This document shows positions 6,782 to 32,844 of a DNA stretch of 64,000 nt, one piece after another (within the stretch, counting starts at the first letter, position 1; every line of letters starts with the position of its first letter). Made by a program: the position numbers and the translations under genes. Under the pieces are notes generated by a model. It saw only the letters and a program-made list of their open reading frames with translations, was not told the DNA's origin and searched no databases. Origin of the DNA: Octopus sinensis (taxonomy: Eukaryota); contig NC_043000.1 of NCBI RefSeq assembly GCF_006345805.1, forward strand, positions 28,892,001 through 28,956,000, given 5' to 3'.

Positions 6782-7180
6782 AGGCGCAGGAGTGGCTACG
6801 TGGTAAGTAGCTTGTTTACCAACCACATGGTTACGGGTTCAGTCCCACTGCGTGGCACCTTGGGCAAGTGTCTTCTACTATAGCCTCGGACCGACCAAAA
6901 CCTTGTGAGTGGATTTGGTAGACAGAAACTGAAAGAAGCCCGTCGTATATATGCATATATATATATATGTATATATGTCTGTGTTTGTCCCCCTAGCATT
7001 GCGTGACAACCGATGCTGGTGTGTTTATGTCCCCGTCACTTAGTGGTTCGGCAAAAGAGAACGATAGAATAAGTACTGGGCTTACAAAGAATAAGTCCCG
7101 GGGTCGAGTTTCTCGACTAAAGACGGTGCTCCAGCATGGCCGCAGTCAAAATGACTGAAACAAGTAAAAGAGTAAAAGAG
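6782..7180 (+). mobile_element. Full-length SINE family B (tRNA-derived)
   Basis: Head ggcgcaggagtggct..gtggtaag (A box) and gggttcagtccc (B-box-like), a conserved body with internal TA/TG tract, and tail ggtgctccagcatggccgcagtcaaaatgactgaaacaagtaaaagag. More than 15 relatives lie in the window. Confidence 0.9.
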
Positions 7181-7184
7181 AGAG

Positions 7185-7692
7185 TACTGGCTGTCGTGGC
7201 TTCTGGTCTTAACTGATTGGAAGTGTTATCATGTACACGTTTTATCTTTGGGTGGACTACAGCAAATATTCTACTCAATACCACAGATTTGCTTGTCAGT
7301 TGTTTGACTTTAACCAGTTGAGAATGCCCCTTAATGACTGGCGATATTTGCATCCCTGATGGCGAACAGAAATAGTAGGGGACCATCATAGCCATGTGTT
7401 GCGAGGAATTCTTTGGGGTTTGAATAATTCACCTGGAAACATGGGTGTTTCGTACATCAATCTTAAACCACCCTTATTCAAGGACCTTTTGAGCGGGAGG
7501 AAATACTAACAGGGACTCACATGTAATGCCATGTACTGTTTATCTTAATATAAGGTCACCGTGTTGCGCACATATGATTGTTATGCATGTGCCTGGTGTA
7601 CCCTTATGAGACGGATAATCATGGTGGGTAAACTGGGATTCATATATTTATAGCCCAGTGTCACTGTGATGGCATGCACTGCTCTCTCACTC

Positions 7693-7700
<8 letters not shown>
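7185..7700 (+). repeat. Interspersed repeat family E, copy 2
   Basis: Diverged copy of 6240-6680 with a longer 5' part and an (AAT)n tail. Confidence 0.8.
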
Positions 7701-7736
<36 letters not shown>

Positions 7737-7769
7737 CAACAACAACGATAATTATAATAATAATTGTCG

Positions 7770-8635
7770 AACGACGAGAATGAGTGCTCAACACCGCATT
7801 GATGGATAGATGATATGTCACAAGCTACGGAGACTCGGCATAATGGGAAAACTGGGAGACTGTTTACATGACTTCTTAAAAGACTAAAGGCGGGTTGTGG
7901 TAGCCGATGAACCCTCTTCAAAGAGACAGTAGCAGTGAGTGGAGTCCCTCGGGGAACCGTCATAGAAATGCTGCTGTTAATGGTAGCGCTTCCAGACATA
8001 CAATCAGTTACACAGATAATCGCACTTACTAACAATGCGAACGACACAAAAACTGAATAAGTAGCCTAGGAACATTCCGATTCAGCAATTCTACAGAAAG
8101 GCCGAGATACCATGTATAAATGGGCTGAAGAAAACAACATGCAATTTAATGCAGGTAAATTCCAAACCTTCAGTTATCAGCGAGCTTGGGTAAACATGCC
8201 GCAACAACGATACTTTGGACTAAAGGAAGTAGCAATCCCAGAATCAAGTACAGTGAGTGATCGGATTGTGGATATAAGCAACAATACTTCGTTTCATGTA
8301 TATATCACCGAGATGGTGGCAATATGCGGGTAAATGGCCGGATGAATTCAAATAGCCTCCAGAACAAGTGGCCATGAAACTATGCTGGTTCTATGTAGGA
8401 CATTTGTATTCAGTCGTTTGGACTACTGCTTTCAACGTGGCCACAGTGTCAATATAATAGCGGAACTTGACGCAGTTCAGCAGTACTATACGAGGAAGAT
8501 TTCAGCAATGGAACAGCTGAGCTACTGGGAGAGACTAAAAGCGGTAAAACTCTACTTGGTGGAGTGAAGACGGGCGAGTTATGCAGTGATATAAGTATGG
8601 AAAAGCCTGGAGGTGTTAGCAGGAAACTATGACAT
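7770..8635 (+). pseudogene. CR1/L2-group LINE reverse transcriptase C-terminal remnant
   Basis: VSGVPRGTV (SGVPQG), NANDTK (YADD-like), YKWAEENNMQFNAGKFQ, SRLDYC and LSYWERLKAVKLYLVE, with frameshifts and stops. Confidence 0.85.
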
Positions 8636-8642
8636 CAAAAGC

Positions 8643-8687
<45 letters not shown>

Positions 8688-8690
8688 ACG

Positions 8691-8735
<45 letters not shown>

Positions 8736-8769
8736 TTACATACATATATATACATATATATGCATATAT

Positions 8770-9180
8770 GTGTGGTAAATAGCTTGCTTACCAACCACAT
8801 GATACCTGGTTCAGTCCCACTGCGTGACACCTCGGGCAAGTGTGTTCTACTATAGCCTCGGGCCGACCAAAGCCTTGTGAGTGGATTTGGTAGATGGAAA
8901 CTGAAAGAAGCCCGTTGTATACATGTATATATACATATATATGTATGTATGTGTCTGTGTATACGTTTGTGTGTCTGTGTTTGTTCCCCCAACAGCGCTT
9001 GACAACCGATGGTGGTGTGTTGCGTCCCCGTAACTTAGCCGTTCGGCAAAAGAGACCGATAGAATAAGTACTAGGCTTACAAAGGAAAAGTTCTGGGGTC
9101 GATTTGCTCGACTTAAGTCGGTGCTCCAGCATGGCCCCATTCAAATGACTGAAGCAAGTAAAAGAGTGAAAGGGTAAAAG
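8770..9180 (+). mobile_element. SINE family B copy
   Basis: Same body and tail as 6782-7180. Confidence 0.9.
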
Positions 9181-9273
9181 ACTATATACATAAATATACT
9201 TACATGTGTCTATATATTTGTGTTTGTGTGTATGTTTGTGTGCATGTGTGTATGTGTGTATGTGTGTGTGTGG

Positions 9274-9304
<31 letters not shown>

Positions 9305-9662
9305 TGTGTGTGTGTGTGTCTATACCATGGTGTTACACGTCATATGTAGGCTGACTTTGAAAGTGTACTTTTGCATCTATGGGTAATATCAGGAATATAT
9401 GGCATGGCATACAGACAATGATTATAATTTAACTTTTATCAAATTTGTTGGCACTTATTCAAAGTGATGAGATGAATACTAAGTTTGAAAAGAAAATTGT
9501 TTATAACCTTAAAATAAAATCATATAAAATAATATTCAAAAGATAAAAATGAAATGAAAACAAAATTACTCTCCGTGTCGGCTTTATATTATGGAAACTC
9601 ACTTTCTCTCTCTCTCTCACTCTCTCTCTCACCCTCCCTCCCTCTCTCTATCTATCTATCTA

Positions 9663-9708
<46 letters not shown>

Positions 9709-10347
9709 TCTCTTCAATTTTCTATACGATGTAAAAATCAACCTACATTCATATCGGCTATTATACATACCTATATAAATATAATTACACACACGCACAC
9801 ACACGCACACACTCGTAGACACGCACACATACACACACACTAACACTGACACGCGCACGTGCACACATACATACACACATGCACACACACACACATATAT
9901 GTACATATTTATGCATAAACATGCACACATACATAAACACACACACATGTATATATATATACTTATTTATACACGCACATACTCGCACGGACACACACGC
10001 ATATACATGTGTGTGACGGGTGTGTGTGTGTGTGTGTGTGCGTGTGTGTGTGTATGTGCACGGTGCATATATGTAGGATTTATGGAGCTTGTGCAGTAAT
10101 TCTGCTAAGGAAAAAGAAAACCTTCAAAATGAACCCTGGGTGAGTCCATTTACTCGAAAGGTTTAGGAAAACACCCTCTGGCTTACAGATTCATTTGAAT
10201 TAATTTCCGATGATCCTGCCCTTTCTTCTCACTGGATATTTAACTATGACCACGAATGCTTAGAGAGTAGCATACCTGTCATACTGATATGTGTTATAAA
10301 ATTCGGCATTCATGGCATAAAATAATGTAATCATATGTATCTGAGTG

Positions 10348-10610
10348 GGGGAACATGGCCTAGTGGTTAGAGCAGCGGACTCGCGGTCGAGGGATCGCGG
10401 GTTCGAATCTAAGCTCCAGGCGGCTCCGGCAGAAGGTAATGACGAACCTCTGCTGATTCTTTCGCCATAACTCTCTCTCACACTTACCTCCTGCATCTTG
10501 CAGCTCACCTGCGACGGACTGGCATCCCGTCCAGGTGGGGAACCTATACGCCAAGGAAACCGGGAAACCGGTCCTTATGAATCAGGCGTGGCTCGAGAAG
10601 GAACAAAAAA
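10348..10610 (+). mobile_element. SINE family D (tRNA-Arg-like head)
   Basis: tggcctagtggttagagc (A box), gggttcgaatc (B box), body cctgcgacggactggcatcccgtccagg and an A-rich tail. A second copy lies at 16995-17214. Confidence 0.85.
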
Positions 10611-10617
10611 GAAAAAA

Positions 10618-10658
<41 letters not shown>

Positions 10659-11209
10659 GTGTGTGTGTGTGTATGTGTGTGTGTGTGCGTTGACATATAC
10701 ATACATATACGTATTTAGAAGAAGAATGTTGTTACACGGCTTGCAGAATTCGAATGCCACATCTGCTGTAAACCGTATATATCAGCTAATTACTGCACTA
10801 AAGTAGTATTACAGCCTTTTATTATTAACGGACTTAAATTAAGTTGCTACGACGATATACTAATGACTTATCAACAGGAATCTCAGTCTGCACAGTATGA
10901 AGGTATTGTATTATACAGATATACATAATACAAACTCGCTCCACAGCATTTACAGAAGTAACCCTACATCCCTTTCGTTGCATATTTGGAACTTAAGGGA
11001 AAATCATATAAATATAAATATGGACTGGACAAGACTGAACCGTATCTATTTTTGTTGTATATTTGTTTATTGCTCTTCGTTGACTGATTCAGAGGTTACC
11101 TTGCATATAGCGATGGATAATGTTTTGCTAAAATTGCTTAATTTTTTATCACCTATCTTCGGTAAAGTGAGTGGTTGTGGTATCTATAGATGTCGATTAC
11201 ACCAATATG

Positions 11210-11470
11210 CTCTGAGAGAGAATTTCGTAGATGGAAACTGTATAGAAGCCCGTAGTATATATAAGTGTCTATGTGTGTCTGTCCTCTTCCCATCGCATCG
11301 CTTGACAACCAGGTGTTTGCTTGTTTACGTCCCCATGACTTAGCTGTTCGCCAAAATAGTTCCATTGAATAAATATCAGTTTTAAGAAATAAGTACTGAG
11401 ATCAATTTACTCGACTAAATACTTCAAGACAAAGCCACAACATGGCCACAGTTCAATGACCGAAGCAAGT
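11210..11470 (+). mobile_element. Old, diverged SINE family B copy
   Basis: gtagatggaaactg..gaagcccg, cgcttgacaacc and catggccacagttcaatgac. Confidence 0.7.
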
Positions 11471-11634
11471 AGTTGTTAAAATACGATAAAAGATCAACAT
11501 GCTAAAACGTCAATCGTCATTGCGTTTGGCTTTTCTCCGCTTTAAAAACGAATATTCTCAGGAAGAGGAATATTCAAGCTATACAATAAAGTTGCAATAT
11601 TTTGGATATTCCAAGTATATATTAGGTGGTCATG

Positions 11635-12008
11635 TGGAGGCGCAATGGCCCAGTGGTTAGGGCAGCGGACTCGCGGTCGTAAGATTGCGGTTTCGATTCC
11701 CAGACCGGGCGTTGTGAGTGTTTATCGAGCGAAAACGCCTAAAGCTCCACGATGTTCATGCAGGGAGTGGTGAAGAACCCCACTGTACTCTTTCACCACA
11801 ACTTTCTCTTTCTTCATGTTTCTTTTATACCTGTATTTCAAAGAGCCAGACATGTCACACTCTGCGTCAGGCTGAATCTCCTCGGGAACTACATTAAGGG
11901 TACACGTGTCTGTCGAGTGCTCAGCCACTTGCACGTTAATTTCACGAGCAGGCTGTTCCATTGATCGGATCAACTGGAACCCTCGTGGTCGCAACCGACG
12001 GAGTGCCA
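11635..12008 (+). mobile_element. SINE family C (tRNA-Arg-like head shared with family D)
   Basis: ggaggcgcaatggcccagtggttagggcagcggactcgcggtcg..ggtttcgattccc. Colinear with 34408-34791. Confidence 0.9.
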
Positions 12009-12189
12009 CGATATGTGGTGATGAACGATAGCAATCCTAGAGACTCTCTTTCGTTAAATCAATTTTCTACTTGAATTTTTGGCAAACTTATATATTCTAG
12101 AATGGTCTATCTTAGTTTTCTATCTTCCCAAATTAATTTTACATTTAAACTACGCACAATGAACCCAATGTAATTCAGCACCCCAATCG

Positions 12190-12221
12190 TGTGTTGTGTG
12201 TGTTCGTGTGCGTGTGTGTTA

Positions 12222-12271
<50 letters not shown>

Positions 12272-12630
12272 TATATATATATAATATATATATTACATAC
12301 ATATATATTACATATATATATGTATAATATATATGTTATATATGTATATATATATGTATATATATACATATATATATGTACATATATATATATAGTATAT
12401 GTACATATATATATATGTACACTCACATATATATACATGTGAGTGTATGTATGCGTATGTGAGTGTACATATATATACACACGCACATGTATGTATATGC
12501 ATAGATCAATATACACACTTGCGTACACACATATATATCAGTGTGTGTGTGTGTGTTGTGTGTGTGCGTGTGCATGTCTGTGTGTCCGTTCGAGCGCGTT
12601 TGTGTGTGTTCGTGTGCCTTTATGTGTAGG
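12190..12630. repeat. Compound (TA)n/(TG)n microsatellite
   Basis: Direct inspection. Confidence 0.95.
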
Positions 12631-12853
12631 CACGAGTGCGCATTGGTGTATTAAAATATTTAAATTGAAAAAAATAATAAGATTGGTGCCAAATTTCAGC
12701 AATCAATTAGGGCATTTCTGAAACAATTATCGTAAACAGTATCAAGTACAGAAATGGCTGTCTGCAACTCTCCCCTATCTCCCCTTTCTCTCTATCTCTT
12801 CCTCCCTCCTCCCTCTAATTTTTCTCTCTATCTATCTATCTTTTTATCTCTCT

Positions 12854-12906
<53 letters not shown>

Positions 12907-13235
12907 AGATTATCTATTTCCAGGTAAGTGGGATGTGAGAGGTTGGGTTCCTCACCGAGGTAACAGAATAGCAACAGTGACGTAAAATGACGGGTGGATA
13001 ACGCCTACACACACACACACACACACACATACACACACAAACACTCCCACCCACAAAAAAACACGCAGATACATACACATACATATACATATGTATATGT
13101 ATATGTATATGTATGTATATATTTGTGAATATGTCTATATGTGTGGAATGTTTTTTACATTTTCCAGTAGCGTTCGTGTAATATATATATATATATATAT
13201 ATATTTGCAAGTATATACATATACATATATATATA

Positions 13236-13290
<55 letters not shown>

Positions 13291-13351
13291 TCATATATCA
13301 TATACACACACACACACACACACACACATATATTATATATATTATATATAG

Positions 13352-13740
13352 GTAAACAGTAAAAATAATTACAGACATGGACAAGAACATGAACACACCA
13401 CAGAGACGACACAAGAACCACAGGACGGACATTCGAAGCCCTCAGTCATCAGTCAAGAACCAGATCATCTTAGCAATTTCGGCTGATTAATCTGAGATTG
13501 CTCCGATATGGCCAGCCGCCAAGGGAAATCTAAGCCAAGCGCATTAGATCCCCTGGAAGAAAGCTTCGAATGTATACAACACGAGGACGGAAAACGAACG
13601 AAGTACACGAACAAAAATACAGAATACGTGACACCAATAAGAATACAAAAACGTAAAAACAATAACGGTAAAAATAAAAAATAAACAACAAAACAAAACC
13701 AGGACGTAGGACAAGGGTCTTTCGACAGGACGAGTTGAAT
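13352..13740. repeat. Probable interspersed repeat with internal inverted segments, between TA tracts
   Basis: cattcgaagc (13430) and gcttcgaatg (13563) are inverted, as are ggctg and cagcc. The A-rich flanks are bounded by TA microsatellites. Confidence 0.45.
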
Positions 13741-14244
13741 ATATATATATATATACGTGCGTGTATGTTTGTGTGTGTGTTTGTCTGTGTGTATGGTGTG
13801 TGGGGGAACAGAGAGAGACAGAAAAGGAGGGAAACGAAAAAAAAAAGACGACAAACGAGAGTTTGCAAAAGAAAGATAAGGGTGTGTGTGTGTGTGTGTT
13901 TGTGTGTGTAAGAACATGCGTGTACGTGCGTGCGTTTTTGCGCATGCGTGTGATTGATCGATAGATAGATAAATAAATTCTTTAAATTTTGTAATATTAT
14001 AGATGATCAATATGGTCAGTAATTGTAAAACTAAGATTATATAATGCTTTGTTTTTGTTTAATTTTTATCTTGTAGTTTAGTTTCATTGTTTTTGTTGCC
14101 CTTATTGTTGTTTCTTCTACAGTTTCTTCATAGCCCCGGGTCATCCTCGATCAAACAGAGCCATGATCCAAAGAATTCAAACTCTAGCCATTCAGTTTCT
14201 TTTGCTCACCCTACCCCCACCCATTTTATTCTTGATGAGTGTTC

Positions 14245-15033
14245 TTTTCCAATATATTTACGTATAAAACGATTATGAAATTTTACTGTTATTTCTAGCA
14301 CGCCATTTTACTACATAGAGAATTTTTCATTGGTCCGTTATTGAATGCAATTTTTTTTTGCCTTTCTCCAGTAGCGTTCGTGAAATAAAAATTGTAAAAC
14401 CATCTGTCAAAACTGGATTTCAGGTTCAGCTCGTGTCTAGTATAGAAGTTACCTCTGCCTCTATAGCACTTGTTGCGTGGAATATGATTGTAAATATTAT
14501 AAACTTCGATTTTAACAAGGTTACAGCATATGCGATTCGTTCAGTATTTCATCGTTTTATGAGCAAAAGTCGCTTGATTTTGTTTGCCATGCGCATGTCT
14601 GTGGAATTTCTTTTCTTCTTTTTTTCCATTTCATTTTATTTTTATATGTTCTACGCTGTATATTTTCCTATATACTTACATATAAAACGATTGGAAAATT
14701 TTGCACTTTTTTCTAGCAGACCAATTTACTACATAGAAAATATTTCATTGGTCCGTTATTTAAAAGAATTTTTTTTACATATTTATTTTTTTTTTTTTGC
14801 ATTTTTCCAGTAGCGTTTGTGAAACGAAAATTCTAAAACTGGATTTCAGGCCTAGCTAGTATCTAGTATAGAAGTTACCTCTATAGCCTTTATAGCATTT
14901 GTTGCGTAAAATATGACTCTAAATATTATAAACTCCGATTTTAACAAGGTTACAACATAGATTCGTTCAGCATTTCATCGTTTTGAGACCGAAAGTCGCT
15001 TGATTTTGTTTAGAACGCACGTGTCCGTGGAAT
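14245..15033 (+). repeat. Diverged tandem duplication, two units with period of about 420 bp
   Basis: 14245-14607 aligns to 14663-15033 (cattggtccgttatt, ccagtagcgtt, aaaactggatttcagg, ctagtatagaagttacctct, aaagtcgcttgattttgttt). Confidence 0.9.
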
Positions 15034-15319
15034 ACTAAGTCGCTAAGGAGTAAATAATTCAATTGGTTAAACAACTGAGAGATCACCGTTGAAACTGACG
15101 AAAGATTTATCACATTTCTATTAACAACAGCACAAACACAAATATAACAATAAGCAGCAATGCTGTCACCAAACAACACCCTAAGTGAAAGACAGCGCCG
15201 CTAATAGTGGCTTGACTTGCTAGAAATAGCAGCTAAATTTCCTTAAATCACACCTGCCATTTTAACAAAGGAAAGAGCCATTAGATAATATAATCCTAGA
15301 TAGAGAAGAAGACGGAATA

Positions 15320-15530
15320 CTGTTTTGGCACAAGGCCAGCAAGCTTGAGGGTGGGTTACGTCGATTACGTTGGCCCCAGTGGTCAGCTAGTGCTTATTTT
15401 TATCAAATCTGGAAGGATAAAATACAGCATCGACCTCAGCGGAATTCGAACTCAGAACGTAACAATGGACGAAATACCGCTAAGCATCTTATCCGGCATG
15501 TTAACGAATCTGTAAACCCGACGCCGTAAT
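15320..15530 (-). mobile_element. SINE family A copy (diverged)
   Basis: cgacctcagcggaattcgaactcagaacgtaac..gacgaaataccgctaagcat. Confidence 0.8.
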
Positions 15531-15594
15531 TCTATTTATACTAATATTATTAGATATATCGTTTTTGTTTTCTCCTCCATGCTTTCTCTTTCTC

Positions 15595-15775
15595 TTTTCT
15601 CTTTTACTTGTTTCAGTCATTTGACTGCGACCATGCTGGAGCACCACCTTTAGTCGAGCAAATCGACTCCGGGACTTATTCTTTGTAAGCCCAGTACTTA
15701 TTCTATCGGTCTCTTTTGCCGAACCGCTAAGTGACGGGACGTAAACACACCAGCATCGGTTGTCAAGCAATGCTT
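15595..15775 (-). mobile_element. SINE family B 3' half
   Basis: cttgtttcagtcatttgactgcgaccatgctggagcacc..cggttgtcaagc. Confidence 0.9.
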
Positions 15776-16049
15776 ATGTAACAAATTAAAACGAATTCCC
15801 TTTAAAATTATGTTAACAATATTACTGCTGTTTTAAATATTGCATCGCTCGAAGCAGGTCGCCAAGATGTACAAAGTTCTGTCCAGAGTACCGATCTATG
15901 TAACGAACAGCCACTCTTACACTCTCTTTCTCCCGCACACGCGCCCTTCCCCTCACGTACACACATGCACGCATTCTCTCATATTATCTCAATCTACCCT
16001 ACACGCACTATCTCCCCTCTCTTTCTTTCAATCTATTCGTTTCACTTTC

Positions 16050-16850
16050 CCTTCAACTGCACGGTTTAATTAATTTCGAAACCGCCTATTATTTTGGCAT
16101 CAGATAAAAATGTCTTTAACATGTATTTAACGTGTATTTAGAGAAGATTTAATATGTATTTAGCATGTAATTTATGTGTGTATTTAAGTTAATCTTCAAA
16201 GTATTCACCACTGCTCTTCTTTTCTTCCAATCTTAACAAGTATAATAAGCGACAATTGAAATTTATGCATTCGCATTTGTAATTTGGCAGAGAAAAATCC
16301 GTTATTAATTTCCTGAACAATGACTGAACAACAGTAATACTTAATCAGTTCAGCATCGATTGAAACTAAGTTTACAGCAAATATCCAACATAATTTTTAT
16401 AATTCTATTATTTATTGTAGATCAACATAGTAACAGAAAAAGCTTTGGTGCTTAGTTAAATTTCGAAACAGCAACACAGCATGTGTGTTGATTTGTCTCC
16501 AGTCATCTGGGACCCAGTTAAAGAAATTATTTCAACCAGTAGATGTTAGATAAACTTTTGTGATTAAGACTCGTTAAAATTCACTTCATTTAGTAGTTTT
16601 GCATGACAGGCACTTGGTGACAAACTTAAATTAAGATAATTCTAGTAAACACGGCTGAACCTGAAAGACAATATTTGTTCAATTAAGTTTCTTAACTCGT
16701 ATCGTGATGAGGATTCTTAACAAACTAAAATCTTGGAGATAATTACTAGCTTAAAACCAAACGATATTTCAGATCTGAGCACATTCTTAATCACTTCATT
16801 TCTCAAGTACACTCAAGCATGCACCATTATATGTTACAGTTCTGTTATCT
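16050..16850 (+). repeat. Local duplication, copy 1 (partner 20335-21420)
   Basis: About 265 bp (16064-16329) is identical by eye at offset 4285, followed by progressively diverged homology. Confidence 0.9.
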
Positions 16851-16994
16851 GAAATTATTTGCACCCTTTGATTCTACTGTATCTAACATCCTTCTTTTTT
16901 TTTTTCCTTATCGCATGAATTTAAGATCTTACTGTTATTTATAACTAGCAGAATCGTTAGAAGATAAGAAAATGCTTTGCAATATTGGTATCGG

Positions 16995-17214
16995 TGGAGG
17001 CACATGGCCTATTGGTTAGAGCAGCGGACTCACGGTCGAGGGATCGCTGGTTCGAATCTCAGACCGGGCGATGTGTGTGTGTTTTTATGAATGAAACACC
17101 TAAGCTCCACGCGGCTCCGGCAGAAGGTAATGGCGAACTTCTGCTGACTCTTTCGCCACAACTTTCTCTCACTCTTTCCTCCTGCATCTTGCAGCTCACC
17201 TGCGACGGACCGGC
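16995..17214 (+). mobile_element. SINE family D copy, 3'-truncated into GTA/GTT/CTT microsatellite
   Basis: Head and body as at 10348-10610. Confidence 0.85.
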
Positions 17215-17739
17215 AGTAGTAGTAGTAGTAGTAGTAGTTGTTGTTGTTGTTGTTGTTGTTCTCTTCTTCTTCTTCTTCTTCTTCTTCTTCTTCTTCTTCT
17301 TGCTGTTGTTACTCTGCTCGAGTCAGTTTTGATTGAACAGAAGTAAGTAGTCAATCAGAAGAGTATGTGAAACTCACCACTCAGTAGAGAATCATACTGC
17401 ACGATCCATCACGCGATGCTTTATCATACGCTGTAAATCGCGGTAGTATGGGTAGGTTCCTTTGTATTTTCTACTGAACAGTCTACTTATGTACGTTAGT
17501 AAGTTCCCACAGAGATCAGACCTTAAACGCTGTTGTTCACTGTACATACCATTGTTGATATCAATGGGATTGCTCTCAAATGCTAAACAGTGTTGTTGAA
17601 TAGAATGGCTATTTTTATGTCTGGTTGCTTTTCTCTGAGGCTTTTTGTGTGCTGAGTTGAAGGGATAAATTTCTTTAAATAGTGTTGCAGTAGTGTTCTG
17701 GAATCGGTAGATTCTTTTTATTAGTTTGATCCGGAGAAA

Positions 17740-18140
17740 ACTGTGGTAAGTAGCTTGCTTACCAACCACATCATTCCGGGTTCAGTCCCACTACGTGGCA
17801 CCTTGGGCAAGTATCTTCTACTATAGCTTCGAGCCGACCAAAGCCTTGTGAATGGATTTGGTAGACGGAAACTGAAAGAAGCCCGTCGTATATATGTATA
17901 TGTATATATATGTGTGTGTGTGTGTATCTGTGTTTGTCCCCCCCCCCCACATCGCTTGACAATCGATGCTGGTGTGTTTAGGTCCCTGTAACTTAGTGGT
18001 TCGGCAAAATATACCGATAGAATAAGTACTAGGCTTACAATGAATATGTCCTGGGGTTGATTTGCTCGACTAAAGGCGGTGCTCTAGCATGGCCGCAGTC
18101 AAATGACTGAAACAAGCAAAAGAGAAAAAGAGTAAAAGAG
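17740..18140 (+). mobile_element. SINE family B copy
   Basis: Family body and tail. Confidence 0.9.
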
Positions 18141-19341
18141 TAAGCCCTTTGCAGCCCCCCCCCCCGACCAGTGAGATTGAAGCGCTGTTAATACTCCTGT
18201 TGGACAGTGGCAAGTAGATACTTGCTGTAGGAAAAACATGAGAGGAAATTCCAATGGCCAACGTCTCATGGAATAAAGCCTGAACGAACTGATTTGTACT
18301 GAACCTGGAACTACAAATATGATATCGAGGATACGAGGAGAGATGAGGTGGAAAATGGGGTTGGGATTATTTTTATAGGTTTAACTTAAGACCAGCCGAC
18401 ACTAAGGAACAGAGGATATTGTACTAGAGGTGAGAAAGGGAACTGAGATGACTGAACGCAGCTGATTGGTTGCTGATGATTAGGCTCGGCTAACTGGACA
18501 TTCAGCCTGTTTCGGCGACTGTATTTCTTGGCACAAGAGGCAAGCACGCGCGAGCGCGCAGAAATATTCACAAACAGATAGAAAGAGTGAGAGAGTGAGA
18601 AAGGGTGAGAGGCTTTAGACTTGAAAACGATTTGGCTTTCCTCCTTTCCTCCAACTCATAAAGAGAAATATGTTCACACATTAATATGGAGAAAATGAGA
18701 GACACAGTAAACATCAATGTGAAAGACGTCAGCATCGAATCAGTGACACCAAGTGAGAGCGCCGAAACAGTTGTGTCAAAAGTCTCGTACCCGAAGAAAT
18801 GGTGGAAGGGGAAAACAGCGTGTCTAAGGATCAGAAGCTGAATATCATGAACATAAACTACTTAGAGAACTAAATTTTCCTTTTACTTGGAGAAAAAAAT
18901 TAGAGAAAAACATGTTGGAGACAAAAATTCTTTGCCATTTTCACAAAAAAGGGAGATAATTTCAAACAATTAAAAATTAATTCCAGAGAAAAGCGAAACT
19001 TTAAGATTAACGGGAAATTCTTACAGTTGTTAGCAGGCGAACTGGCATTTTGACCACTACACACATATTTCAATCTGATTAAACCTTATCAGCAACCTAC
19101 TGTCTACTCAAGTTTCTTATGACTAACGGACAGAGATTGTTTTCTTTATCACAAACAGAAAAAAGAGTTACGTAGGTAGAAAACTTCTATGGCTTGAATA
19201 ACAAAGATTCTCTAAGAGCAAACATTATTTCATAAAGAATTTTTGTGTGTAGGTCATTCGGTGCATCTACCTCAGTCTGATTATATACGTGAGGGTGTTT
19301 ATGCACGAATCTGTGTTTACATAGTCGTGCGTAGGAATGGG

Positions 19342-19379
<38 letters not shown>

Positions 19380-19539
19380 TGTGTGTGTGTGTGTGAGCAT
19401 GCGCTATTCTTGTTATTGAACTTCTTTTCCACAGGTATATCATGCTACTTCTAATTCACTTTCTTTATCTCTGCATCTATAATAATTCATTTGTAATACT
19501 TTTATGCACATAGAAACCTTTTATTCTCTCTCTATCTCT

Positions 19540-19806
19540 CCCCCTATATAGAGACATATATAAATATTTATATATTTATATATATGTGTATGTGTGTATG
19601 TATGTATGTGTATGTATATATATTTAAATATATATACATATATATATATGTATATGTATATATATATATGTATATGTATATATATGTGTATATATGTAAT
19701 TATATATATGCATATACCTATGTGCATATGTACATAGATAGCTAGATAGATAGATAGATAGATTAGAAGATAGAGATAGATAGATAGGAGAGAGAGATAG
19801 ATAGAT

Positions 19807-19837
<31 letters not shown>

Positions 19838-19969
19838 TAATTGGGCAAAATTTAGAGTGTGCATATACTCATATTAAGAGAGATCACTTTCGTTTCTTTC
19901 ACGATATATATATATATAAATATATATATATATACCACACAACACACACACACACAACCACACACACAA

Positions 19970-20011
<42 letters not shown>

Positions 20012-21712: not shown

Positions 21713-22306
21713 TTTGTTGTCTCTATAATGTTATCAACTAGTTTTATACCTTCTTCCGAGCCTCTTTTTTCCTGGAGATTCCCCAGTGACCAACAGGTTT
21801 TGTAAGCTATTTGCCTTCATAACGTGCCCAAATTATTAAGAATTTTGCTTGTCTATTTCTTTTACATGGCTGGAATCAAGTACAATTAGGTCCAACCAAA
21901 CCTTATTGGTCTTTTATTCTTTGCTGTGTTCTATAACACCAAACTTGGAAACTTTTCACCGGTCAAGCATCCAGAGCCATACCTTGTTATTGACAATATC
22001 AAGACCTTCAGCAATCTCAGCTCGGTCTTTTACGTATTGACGTATTTCCAAATGTGATGTAAAGAGTCAACAGAATGTTTTCCTGCTGCATTTCTTTTTA
22101 TCTATTTCCATTTATTACATTGATTAATAATAATGCTTCCAACATATCAAAACTAATTTACCACATTGACAGTTTCAATATCAGTTATTATAGGATTACC
22201 TAGATCCTTCGATACACTAAAGTCTAACTAAATATTGAACTATACTCTCCACATTATTTACATTATTTACATTTGATGAATATTTGTCCTCATCTTATTT
22301 GTTGTT

Positions 22307-22352
22307 AACACAACGTTTCGGCTGATATACCCTCCAGCCTTCATCAGGTGTC
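22307..22352 (-). ncRNA. Minimal type I hammerhead ribozyme motif (PLE type)
   Basis: GACAC-CUGAUGA-A-GGCUG-gaggguauau-CAGCC-GAAA-CGUU-GUGUU. Stem I is GACAC/GUGUU, stem II is GGCUG/CAGCC, and palindromic AACGUU replaces stem III. Confidence 0.8.
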
Positions 22353-22538
22353 TTGGGGAAATTTCGAACCTGGGATCTCATTCCTTAGGTATTTTTCAAT
22401 GTTGTTATTATTATTAATATTATTATTATTATATTATTATTATTATTATTTTTATTATTATTATTATTATTCAGGTTACTGCCTGGAGTCGAACTCGGAA
22501 TCTTGGGGTTAGTAGCTCGCGCCATATGCCCCGGGCAC

Positions 22539-22575
<37 letters not shown>

Positions 22576-22623
22576 CCGAAAAAATACCTTAGGAATGAGA
22601 ACCTAGGTTCGAAATTTCCCCAA

Positions 22624-22668
22624 GACTCCTGATGAAGGCTGGAGGGTATATTAGCCGAAACGTTGTTA
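22624..22668 (+). ncRNA. Hammerhead motif in inverted tail (stem I damaged)
   Basis: gactc-CTGATGA-A-GGCTG-gagggtatat-TAGCC-GAAA-CGTT-gttaa. Confidence 0.65.
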
Positions 22669-23714
22669 AACAAAATGAGGACAAATATCCGTCAAATGTA
22701 AATAATGTACATAATTCCTCATCTCTTAAATATAGAACTGTATGCTCTCCCCATTTTCCTTTCATTTCCTTCACCAAAATCCTCGATTCTTCTGACCTAC
22801 AAGCAATATTTGGGGTTAGTAGCATTTTTTGGCATCACTGCTCATAATTTGTCGTTTGTTTTGCATAATTTCATAGTTTTCTTCTTTCTTCCTTTTTTTA
22901 GAAGGATCATACAAACATTTATCAGCGCAATTATCTCCCTTCCTTTTAAATTGCATTATTTCAGCCATGTTATCAATAGGATTTTAAACTCATTTAATCC
23001 AATGAATCTGCCGTAAATTTGTATTCCACATTTTTATGCACAGACAACGTAAATAATTTCATTAATGCTTCTTCGCCATTTTTCTAAAGCTCTGCACTTT
23101 GTCAATCTGCTTCAGGACTTTCGTTCTTTCTAAACTTTTCACAGCTTATCTTTTTACATCAGACGTTAGCAGAGGAGGCTCTCTTTCAGCAAACAATTTT
23201 CTGTGATCACTTTGATTACTTTCAGTTTGATCAGCATGTTTTCTTTTCGTATTAATTGTAGAAGAATTCTTTCTATTTTTCCTTTATCACTCCCTTTTTT
23301 ATAAACCATATCACCATCTTTGTCTTTGATAAGATCATTTCTTGGTACAAATGTTCTTATTATTAGCTTCACTGCTTTGCAAATATCATCCATACAACTT
23401 GCTGTTGATTTTTCTTCAAACTCATAAAAAATTTAGTTGATGATTTCACGTTTGTCTTTTTCTTTCCACGGTTTGAATTTCACAACTCGGTTCATATTCT
23501 TCTCAAGATTGAGATGTTGTAATACCAGTGCATTTTGCAGATCTTTCTTCGGTTTTATCTAATGTCTTGGCTGTTATCCACTTCAACCAGTTTTTCTTTT
23601 ACCATTTTACTAGATAATATTCTTGGCGCTACACTCAAATCATTTTATTCTTGAAGCACACATTCTCTTCTTCTCTACCGTATATATATTATATATATAT
23701 ATATAATATATATA

Positions 23715-31932: not shown

Positions 31933-32050
31933 GTATACTTATATATACGGTGGGCTCTTTTAAAGTTCTATATCTGAGAGTTGAGGAATTATGTACTTTA
32001 TTTACATTATTTACACTGGGCGGGTAGGTGTCCTCACCTTGTTTGTTGTT

Positions 32051-32096
32051 ACTACAACGTTTCGGCTGAAGTACTCTCCAGCCTTCATCAGGTGTC
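32051..32096 (-). ncRNA. Minimal hammerhead motif
   Basis: GACAC-CUGAUGA-A-GGCUG-gagaguacuu-CAGCC-GAAA-CGUU-GUAGU. The loop differs from other copies while stem II is intact. Confidence 0.7.
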
Positions 32097-32189
32097 CTGA
32101 AGGAAATTCAAACCTGGCCCTCATTCCTAAGAATGATGTTGTTGTTGTTATTATTATTATTATTACTATTATTACTACCATTATTATTT

Positions 32190-32262
<73 letters not shown>

Positions 32263-32273
32263 CATCATCATCA

Positions 32274-32309
<36 letters not shown>

Positions 32310-32332
32310 TATTATTATTATTATTATTTTCG

Positions 32333-32385
<53 letters not shown>

Positions 32386-32486
32386 GTTATTATTATATTA
32401 TTCGGGTTACTGCCTGGAATCAAACTTGAAATCTTGGGGCTAGAAGCCCGCGCTCTTAACCACTACACCATATGCGCGTAGTACTA

Positions 32487-32541
<55 letters not shown>

Positions 32542-32743
32542 TAGACCATAATAAGAAGAAGAAGAGAAGAAGAAGAAGAAGAAGAAGAAGAAGACAGAAG
32601 AAAAGAGAGAGAAGAAGAATAGAAGAAGAAAGAAAGAAAGAACCAAGACAGAGAAGAGAAGAAGAAGAAGAAGAAGAAGAATAGCAACAGCAACATCGGA
32701 AAAATACCTTAGGAATGAGCACCCAGGTTTGAAATTTCCCCAA

Positions 32744-32789
32744 GACACCTGGTGAAGGCTGGAGGGTATATCAGCCGAAACGTTGTGTT
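32744..32789 (+). ncRNA. Hammerhead motif in inverted tail (core CUGGUGA)
   Basis: GACAC-CTGGTGA-A-GGCTG-gagggtatat-CAGCC-GAAA-CGTT-GTGTT. Confidence 0.65.
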
Positions 32790-32844
32790 AAAACAAACAA
32801 GATGAGGATAAATATCCGTCAAATGTAAATAATGTAAATAATTA

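Follow-up and report, generated by a model that had tools for sequence, protein, structure and literature searches.

Our analysis of the palindromic insertion at 22241-22750 of the window (the whole 64,000-nt stretch of Octopus sinensis DNA that was analysed) indicated that it is quite likely a single insertion of an EN+ Penelope-like element (PLE), in which two 5'-truncated pseudo-LTRs (pLTRs) were placed head to head, probably by two-ended priming. The interpretation of the palindrome as one insertion event and a known PLE footprint is supported by an empty site, equal divergence of the two arms, TSDs around 52 of 73 family pairs and a link to a PLE ORF, which together bear out the original prediction of one integration event as a fingerprint of PLE reverse transcription. 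What appears to be new is the coupling of long and short arms that could be counted across the family, where either arm may reach further 5'. The SINE-like unit concerned (family H) is, to judge from its sequence context, the pLTR of an autonomous EN+ PLE with an ORF encoding RT and GIY-YIG domains, and the window palindrome itself is a dead, ordinary copy.

Pairwise alignment showed that 22253-22396 and 22580-22715 are reverse complements with 88.9% identity (in a second alignment, 87 nt at 94% plus 48 nt at 90%). Both arms point outwards and differ from one another by 11%, as had been predicted for 22251-22400 and 22575-22740, with ends now placed at 22403 and 22742. The space between the arms is filled by a - strand head (22472-22537) with an (AAT)n tract on either side. 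The arrangement had been described as an inverted tail duplicate upstream of the head; the inverted outward arms are real, but they are rather two independently 5'-truncated pLTR copies placed head to head. The + arm extends to 22742, placing its 3' end ~32 nt beyond that of the - arm. In comparison to the majority of 62 heads, the window head carries a 15-nt deletion that takes out the A box. Of 125 sites that could be compared, each arm departs from the family majority at 5, none in common, and this equal divergence, which had been proposed as a check against the consensus, indicates arms of equal age. The features of the locus are as follows.

21750-22250, - strand: 3' portion of an RTE LINE relic, from the end of RT into the C-terminal region, with an approximate left boundary
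22241-22250, + strand: left TSD copy, tatactctcc, from the sequence; occurs once at the run X20 empty site
22251-22403, - strand: short arm, the 3' part of the pLTR lacking the PLE tail, coding the first PLE ORF residues; matches the family majority at 96.0% across 151 nt
22307-22352, - strand: minimal type I hammerhead motif, intact in the predicted fold, with stem I of 5 bp, stem II and a palindromic helix III
22404-22471, - strand: (AAT)n linker of the short arm, from the sequence
22472-22537, - strand: tRNA-derived head, B box kept and A box lost, starting at the family 5' pile-up site
About 22538: inversion junction
22539-22571, + strand: (AAT)n linker of the long arm, from the sequence; the arm is 5'-truncated within it
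22572-22742, + strand: long arm, comprising the 3' part of the pLTR and the tail; matches the family majority at 91.1% and has an 8-nt gap
22595-22597, + strand: position of the ORF start codon in the long arm
22624-22669, + strand: hammerhead motif with core kept and stem I broken; stems I and II unformed and centroid unfolded in the predicted fold
22710-22742, + strand: PLE 'tail' of about 32 nt, on the long arm only, defined by the bimodal 3' ends
22741-22750, + strand: right TSD copy, tatgctctcc, whose first 2 nt are also the last two bases of the long arm
22751-23400, - strand: the RTE LINE relic continued in its 5' direction and bearing an older internal deletion, with an approximate right boundary

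The 490-bp unit had been proposed to interrupt an old RTE relic between candidate TSDs, and this placement was borne out by the repeats (identical at 9 of 10 bases), by paralogue continuity and by the empty site. The flanks were read, from RTE-like motifs in their translation, as an RTE relic on the - strand. DNA searches recovered RTE paralogues that matched the flanks at only 68-74%. Among five paralogues compared, three (L072, L075 and L077) were continuous over the site, with left alignments ending at 22248-22250, right alignments starting at 22752-22754 and a gap of 2-6 nt. Their right-flank scores beat 200/200 shuffles for L072 and 197/200 for L077, in comparison to only 139/200 for L075, and the right flank gave no alignment in L074 and L076. 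A contig from run X20 (record 10), ~93% alike, aligns from 22741 rightwards with no arms and one repeat copy, and the 30 letters ahead of 22741 resemble window 22211-22240. This record shows the empty site, and we infer that it is an orthologue from a related lineage. Contigs of runs X18 and X19 span the left and right junction, respectively, and hence carry the insertion. The empty site alone cannot prove that both arms arrived jointly. Additionally, the RTE relic lacks much of the RT core at 22807-22828 relative to L072 (about 900 nt), and the run X20 contig holds 130 other letters at this point; this deletion is separate from the PLE insertion.

The pLTR of the tRNA-headed family holds a minimal type I hammerhead, predicted from motif and fold. 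The claim that both strands of the window unit encode a hammerhead held for the - strand, where stems I and II fold, but not for the + strand, where only the core is kept and stem I is lost; the + strand hammerhead is probably dead according to its modelled fold. Rfam returned no hammerhead match in either window arm and no tRNA match in the head. As RNA, the whole unit was predicted to form one long hairpin (-255.6 kcal/mol, z -25), in agreement with the hairpin first proposed for it. RNA reads of run X21 (~6% of the run read, unstranded, and possibly not O. sinensis) covered the arms deeply and left the unique flanks at zero coverage; in this weak test no read-through transcript of the locus was seen. 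The depth of this run exceeded 1000 per mate direction over the window arms (22251-22742) and came from family reads.

The frequency of inverted tails in the 2.72-Gb genome was then surveyed with an exact 35-mer of the hammerhead, which has 1463 matches. The census covered 90 loci spanning 94 of 100 listed matches (of the 1463), all on C1, with one anchor each. An inverted tail was found within 1.2 kb upstream in 47 of the 90 anchors and downstream in none, against a chance of ~0.5% for an opposite-strand neighbour within this distance (at a density of 3 tails per 400 kb). For the remaining 43 anchors the 1.2-kb range contained no inverted tail, and 8 of these 43 had an inverted head only; a tandem neighbour was present in 3/90. 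An arbitrary-sequence sample of 40 stretches of 10 kb held 3 tail matches within 2 stretches, both of them inverted arrangements, and we infer a family of roughly 7,000-20,000 arms genome-wide. Heads were present in both arms of 13 pairs, in one arm of 21 and in neither arm of 13.

Family 3' ends were bimodal, at 139-151 and 173-178, and these two classes, about 32 nt apart, match the optional 30-40-nt end tail of EN+ PLEs. The 47 pairs comprised 36 long+short, 3 long+long, 1 short+short and 7 with an unclassified arm, giving 36 long+short among 40 classifiable pairs (p 2e-7). When best-hit loci and the window were added, 60 of 73 pairs were long+short and 9 were unclassified (60/64 classifiable). 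A TSD score of at least 8 was obtained for 52/73 pairs in comparison to 8/432 mismatched flank pairs used as control. Among long+short pairs, 50 of 60 had a TSD with a median of 12 nt including microhomology (range 8-18). The family thus has the inverted 5'-truncated upstream copy with an enclosing TSD known from EN+ PLEs. The gap between arms ranged from -18 to 921 nt with variable content and unequal ends, and the same long/short palindromes were seen in ORF-bearing copies (e.g. L382, L386, L388, L396, L403).

Two further family members were noted in the window. At 31961-32843 a second palindrome (long arm -, short arm +) interrupts a different abundant repeat and is bordered by a rough duplication of 9-10 bp; its two linkers differ, AAT versus AAG. 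Its arms are 84% (long) and about 94% (short) like the family majority, the long arm matches no scored copy better than 84-86%, and the changes in the long arm look conservative in the ORF frame; this pair perhaps reflects two different templates or two events. A solo short copy on the - strand at 44950-45362 has an (AAC)n/(CAG)n linker in place of (AAT)n.

Comparison of paired arms showed that the short arm reached further 5' in 28 of 60 pairs and the long arm in 23, with 9 ties (p 0.58). Across 5909 sites, 20 non-CpG variants were common to both arms where about 7 would be expected, and 0/2000 permutations were as high. Variant 132T was found in both arms of 4 pairs, in the short arm only of 3 and in the long arm only of none (59 pairs, p 8e-5). 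The near-strict long+short pairing together with these shared rare variants suggests that both starts are used within one RNP, often on one RNA or source. Alternatively, shared variants could result from gene conversion or from a common period of activity. Copy number of a 9-mer beside the short start was discordant in 19/47 scored pairs (Fisher p 0.53) and was higher on the short than on the long arm in 10 of these 47, where some long-arm counts rest on single substitutions. An indel at 88-95 and variant 32T were likewise mostly discordant between paired arms. On account of these three discordances, the 'same RNA' for both arms is not established. Arm divergences were not correlated across 50 pairs (rho 0.004).

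Three additional ideas were tried and set aside. Telomerase-like slippage adding the 9-mer to short arms, hinted at by site 146, found no support, one- and two-unit forms occurring in either class. An A-to-I-edited RNA source of paired arms was not indicated by A>G changes (13.1 per 1000 in paired arms and 14.7 in other tails). A target mimicking the element end gave 157/481 matches (0.33) in comparison to shifted controls with a mean of 0.29 and a maximum of 0.32, and is unproven.

The parent element has the layout head, (AAT)n, hammerhead with ORF start, RT, GIY-YIG and again head. It was recognized from sequence upstream of heads: 8 of 37 heads reaching their own 5' end have a common upstream sequence that translates to a GIY-YIG-type ORF end, and 29 of 30 loci found with that ORF end (a set including the query and four near-identical copies) run on into head and/or tail. 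The top 30 GIY-YIG loci had been tried as parent and were other families with no common tail. A full unit was found in L246 (head 921, tail 1070, ORF, head 3623), and the pLTR, which contains the ORF start, is repeated at both ends also in L253, L384 and L241. The reading frame opens within the 'tail', upstream of the hammerhead, and continues through the long end, an N-terminal domain, RT and EN; the sequence of the window short arm also opens the ORF in L246, L253 and L384. A single ORF with RT and C-terminal GIY-YIG was read over decayed copies (L246, L253, L241), among which no intact copy was seen, and ORF sequence beyond the pLTR was present in only 10/90 anchored loci. The RT piece matched RVT_1 at E 8e-6 with a score of 26.1, below the cut-off of 29.6. 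The L246 GIY-YIG piece matched no Pfam family, its assignment having been made by eye. The best of 420 homologues had 67% identity, and the best 120 of the 420 mostly carried PF00078+PF28514+PF26215, a few of them PF01541. One homologue (P0006) retains the hammerhead-coded stretch at its N terminus, as judged by eye. No extra Zn-finger linker motif was seen by eye between RT and EN. The parent element probably belongs to the Penelope/Poseidon group, as far as its sequence allows placement.

Several other structures were observed in the course of this search. At the start of the full unit in L246 (1200-1270), the tail end and the ORF bases that follow it occur three times, head to tail, and L253 has a short tail piece ahead of its 5' pLTR. 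A second, much younger GIY-YIG family (L174, L175, L183-L197) has open frames of ~780 aa at several places, with no similarity to the tail and no hammerhead by pattern. Four near-identical loci (L215, L221-L223; L241-L244) contain a long PLE palindrome that includes a partial tandem, and are either redundant contigs or duplicated segments of the genome. In L005, L093, L140 and L166 the (AAT)n linker was later entered by LINE-like sequences of 400-700 nt, possibly of R4/Dong or another clade that targets TAA repeats.

When compared with 27 tRNA genes (from 30 loci), the head scored above shuffles for 25 of the 27. It was closest to tRNA-Arg(TCT) at 56.5 against a shuffle maximum of 33, but Ala followed closely at 53.5, so that the Arg isotype is tentative. 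Positions of the A and B boxes were judged against the consensus. ARAGORN at default made no tRNA call in 7 loci, and lowered thresholds gave noise. Among 118 heads, 41 begin at positions 1-9 without an upstream ORF (13 of these at tRNA +1), 8 extend upstream into the ORF end and 70 start within the head, with one head counted twice. Head 5' starts per nt were accordingly 14.5% at positions 1-9 versus 1.2% inside. This pile-up can be interpreted as transcription that probably begins at the tRNA-derived head by Pol III, or, in a rival reading, as RT stalling at a small hairpin there.

Pol III terminates at T runs. The ORF sense strand in 69 kb of natural copies held 0.43 T4 runs per kb versus 1.93 expected, and there was no TTTT site common to 25% of ORF copies. 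In 65 open ORF pieces, 6 T4 runs were counted against 28.5 +- 4.2 under synonymous shuffling; these pieces represent one family and effectively one 2.4-kb observation with 3-7 runs expected. Nine own-family copies had 8 runs in comparison to 34 expected. Another GIY-YIG family of the same genome (8 loci) had 2.3-4.9 runs per kb, the same as shuffles. Metagenome relatives, of which 73/80 were used after 7 were dropped (under 1 kb or duplicate), had 485 runs versus 338 expected with a median of 3.2 per kb, and only 1 of the 73 had 0.5 per kb or fewer. The evidence for T-run depletion is moderate, with p estimated at about 0.001-0.06 depending on the null model. A T-run-poor ORF would be compatible with Pol III read-through. 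We tentatively put forward, at somewhat below even confidence, a wider scenario in which a PLE took a tRNA gene as its pLTR promoter, is transcribed end to end by Pol III with a 2.4-kb ORF purged of TTTT, uses one RT start per target end and has left thousands of dsRNA-forming palindromes. If the head were the Pol III promoter of the whole unit, this would be a protein-coding Pol III retrotransposon and would raise the question of how uncapped RNA is translated. Neither a protein-coding Pol III-driven retrotransposon nor a pLTR that combines a tRNA-derived head with an ORF free of T runs was found in the literature searched, Repbase and most subscription journals lying outside its scope.

Fixed outer ends on both sides, combined with either arm reaching further 5', favour two-ended priming with one start each. 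The GIY-YIG domain would nick both strands in a staggered cut about 10 bases wide. One target 3'-OH would start cDNA at the distal RNA site and produce the long arm, aided by 1-3 nt of microhomology, while the other would start at the proximal site and produce the short arm. Both cDNAs would extend toward the RNA 5' end, halt at variable points and be joined through short homologies, and repair would copy the overhang into the TSD. Internal RT starts on head-initiated RNA may likewise generate the many head-to-tail copies that resemble a SINE.

Fold-back or self-priming, in which one cDNA (or an antisense RNA, PMC3846280) folds and is copied again to form the inverted arm, is unlikely in our estimation. 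Junctions that often fall in short head palindromes (L016, L023, L102, L144) and rare variants common to both arms agree with it, and self-priming was proposed for the head-to-head form in the available part of PMC3846280. Starting from a long first strand, however, it predicts a long arm that always extends further 5' (seen in 23 pairs versus 28 for the short arm), offers no reason for a fixed short-arm end that matches the second RT start and is at odds with the 10/47 pairs that carry more 9-mer units on the short arm; the long/short rule with variable 5' reach runs contrary to this model. It is doubtful, though somewhat conceivable, that the copies are a separate tRNA SINE whose short Pol III RNA is moved in trans by PLE protein, the palindrome still being one PLE-type event. 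The A/B-box-like head nearest tRNA-Arg(TCT) among 27 genes, the 5' pile-up and the rarity of ORF sequence beyond the pLTR (10/90) point in this direction. Set against them, the same head stands at both ends of the autonomous element (L246; 29/30 ORF ends), and internal RT starts on full-length RNA would yield the same short copies. A SINE would be non-autonomous and separate except for its 3' tail; here both head and tail lie within an ORF-bearing element. This reading and two-ended priming are not exclusive.

That a first insertion was later hit, in its (AAT)n tract or head, by an independent second one appears very improbable. The linkers do attract later insertions, as in the four loci with LINE-like insertions (L005, L093, L140, L166), and the arms of the pair at 31961-32843 are unequally diverged, but a single TSD pair surrounds both arms with no inner TSD seen, the window arms are equally diverged, and neither the 47 versus 0 orientation bias nor the long+short rule would be expected. 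L1-style twin priming, a TIR/MITE element or an assembly artefact has, in our view, next to no likelihood, even though the structure is inverted with a TSD and long palindromes are prone to misassembly. Twin priming yields non-overlapping arms, whereas the same 150 nt is present in both arms here. The unequal ends, variable junctions and lack of a fixed interior speak against a TIR/MITE element, and arms that differ by 11% with X18/X19 contigs crossing the junctions speak against an artefact. Two-ended priming by an EN+ PLE thus remains our preferred explanation.

According to the accessible portions of PMC3846280 and PMC8557442, PLE insertions often have an inverted truncated 5' copy, a 30-40-nt one-sided tail (a tail length also given in the portion of PMC11167929 available) and 8-10-bp TSDs, and the second of these papers (PMC8557442) describes as undefined how PLEs come by inverted repeats and tails on one side. 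With inverted pLTR, tail and TSD already published for PLEs, the palindrome architecture is known. The closest likeness is with the Adineta vaga elements Pen2a_Av, Pen2_Av and Pen3a (PMC3846280; scheme in PMC8557442), for which the sections available describe an inverted 5'-truncated pLTR at the 5' end, an 8-10-bp TSD enclosing the whole, a ~31-bp tail on one inverted pLTR, a pLTR with the first ORF codons and an empty site with one repeat copy. As described there, these elements differ in having few copies and a TATA/Inr-like promoter, in contrast to the thousands of copies, long+short rule and tRNA-derived pLTR head of the octopus family.

In the part of PMC11167929 available, the anole PLE protein was purified and shown to cut each of the two strands and to extend it, RT starting at two adjacent internal sites bounding the tail. 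This element (PAc, Poseidon_Ac) resembles the octopus family in its hammerhead within the ORF start, two RT starts about one tail apart and both strands being cut and extended. It differs in that, within the same portion, its start sites are without strand preference in vitro and no tRNA head is described, and in that the octopus family has its start codon ahead of the hammerhead. Equal use of the start site on both strands means that the long/short coupling is not explained by the anole assay. The metazoan PLE minimal hammerheads covered by the available text of PMC4209133 share with the family an unpaired base before helix II, the G10.1-C11.1 pair, a palindromic 15.2-16.2 and a short helix I. 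Schistosoma hammerhead pairs on opposite strands 100-700 bp apart are also reported there; ends, TSDs and arm relations lie outside that analysis, as far as the text available extends. Non-LTR retrozymes (bioRxiv 10.64898/2026.07.22.740005, in the part accessible) are alike in their type I hammerhead and PLE pLTR origin and differ in forming tandem arrays, in comparison to 3/90 tandem and 47/90 inverted arrangements here. The tRNA-headed family is not described in the available passages of PMC13282606, PMC8967140, PMC4758252 and PMC10886601, whose supplementary libraries may hold it.

Copies of the tRNA-headed PLE family are easily mis-annotated as tRNA SINEs. The octopus tRNA-derived SINEs OK, OR1 and OR2 were reportedly described by Ohshima and Okada in 1994, and OR1 and OR2 are said to be of tRNA-Arg origin. 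Likened by description and not by sequence, they share a tRNA-like head with our family, whose best match is tRNA-Arg, and differ in that our family is the end of an autonomous PLE. In comparison to these known systems, a tRNA-derived pLTR head with a 5' pile-up together with an ORF without conserved TTTT runs appears new and tentatively suggests a Pol III protein-coding retrotransposon, and the high copy number of the family turns the origin of PLE inverted repeats into counts, with nearly always one end per RT start and either arm longer 5'.
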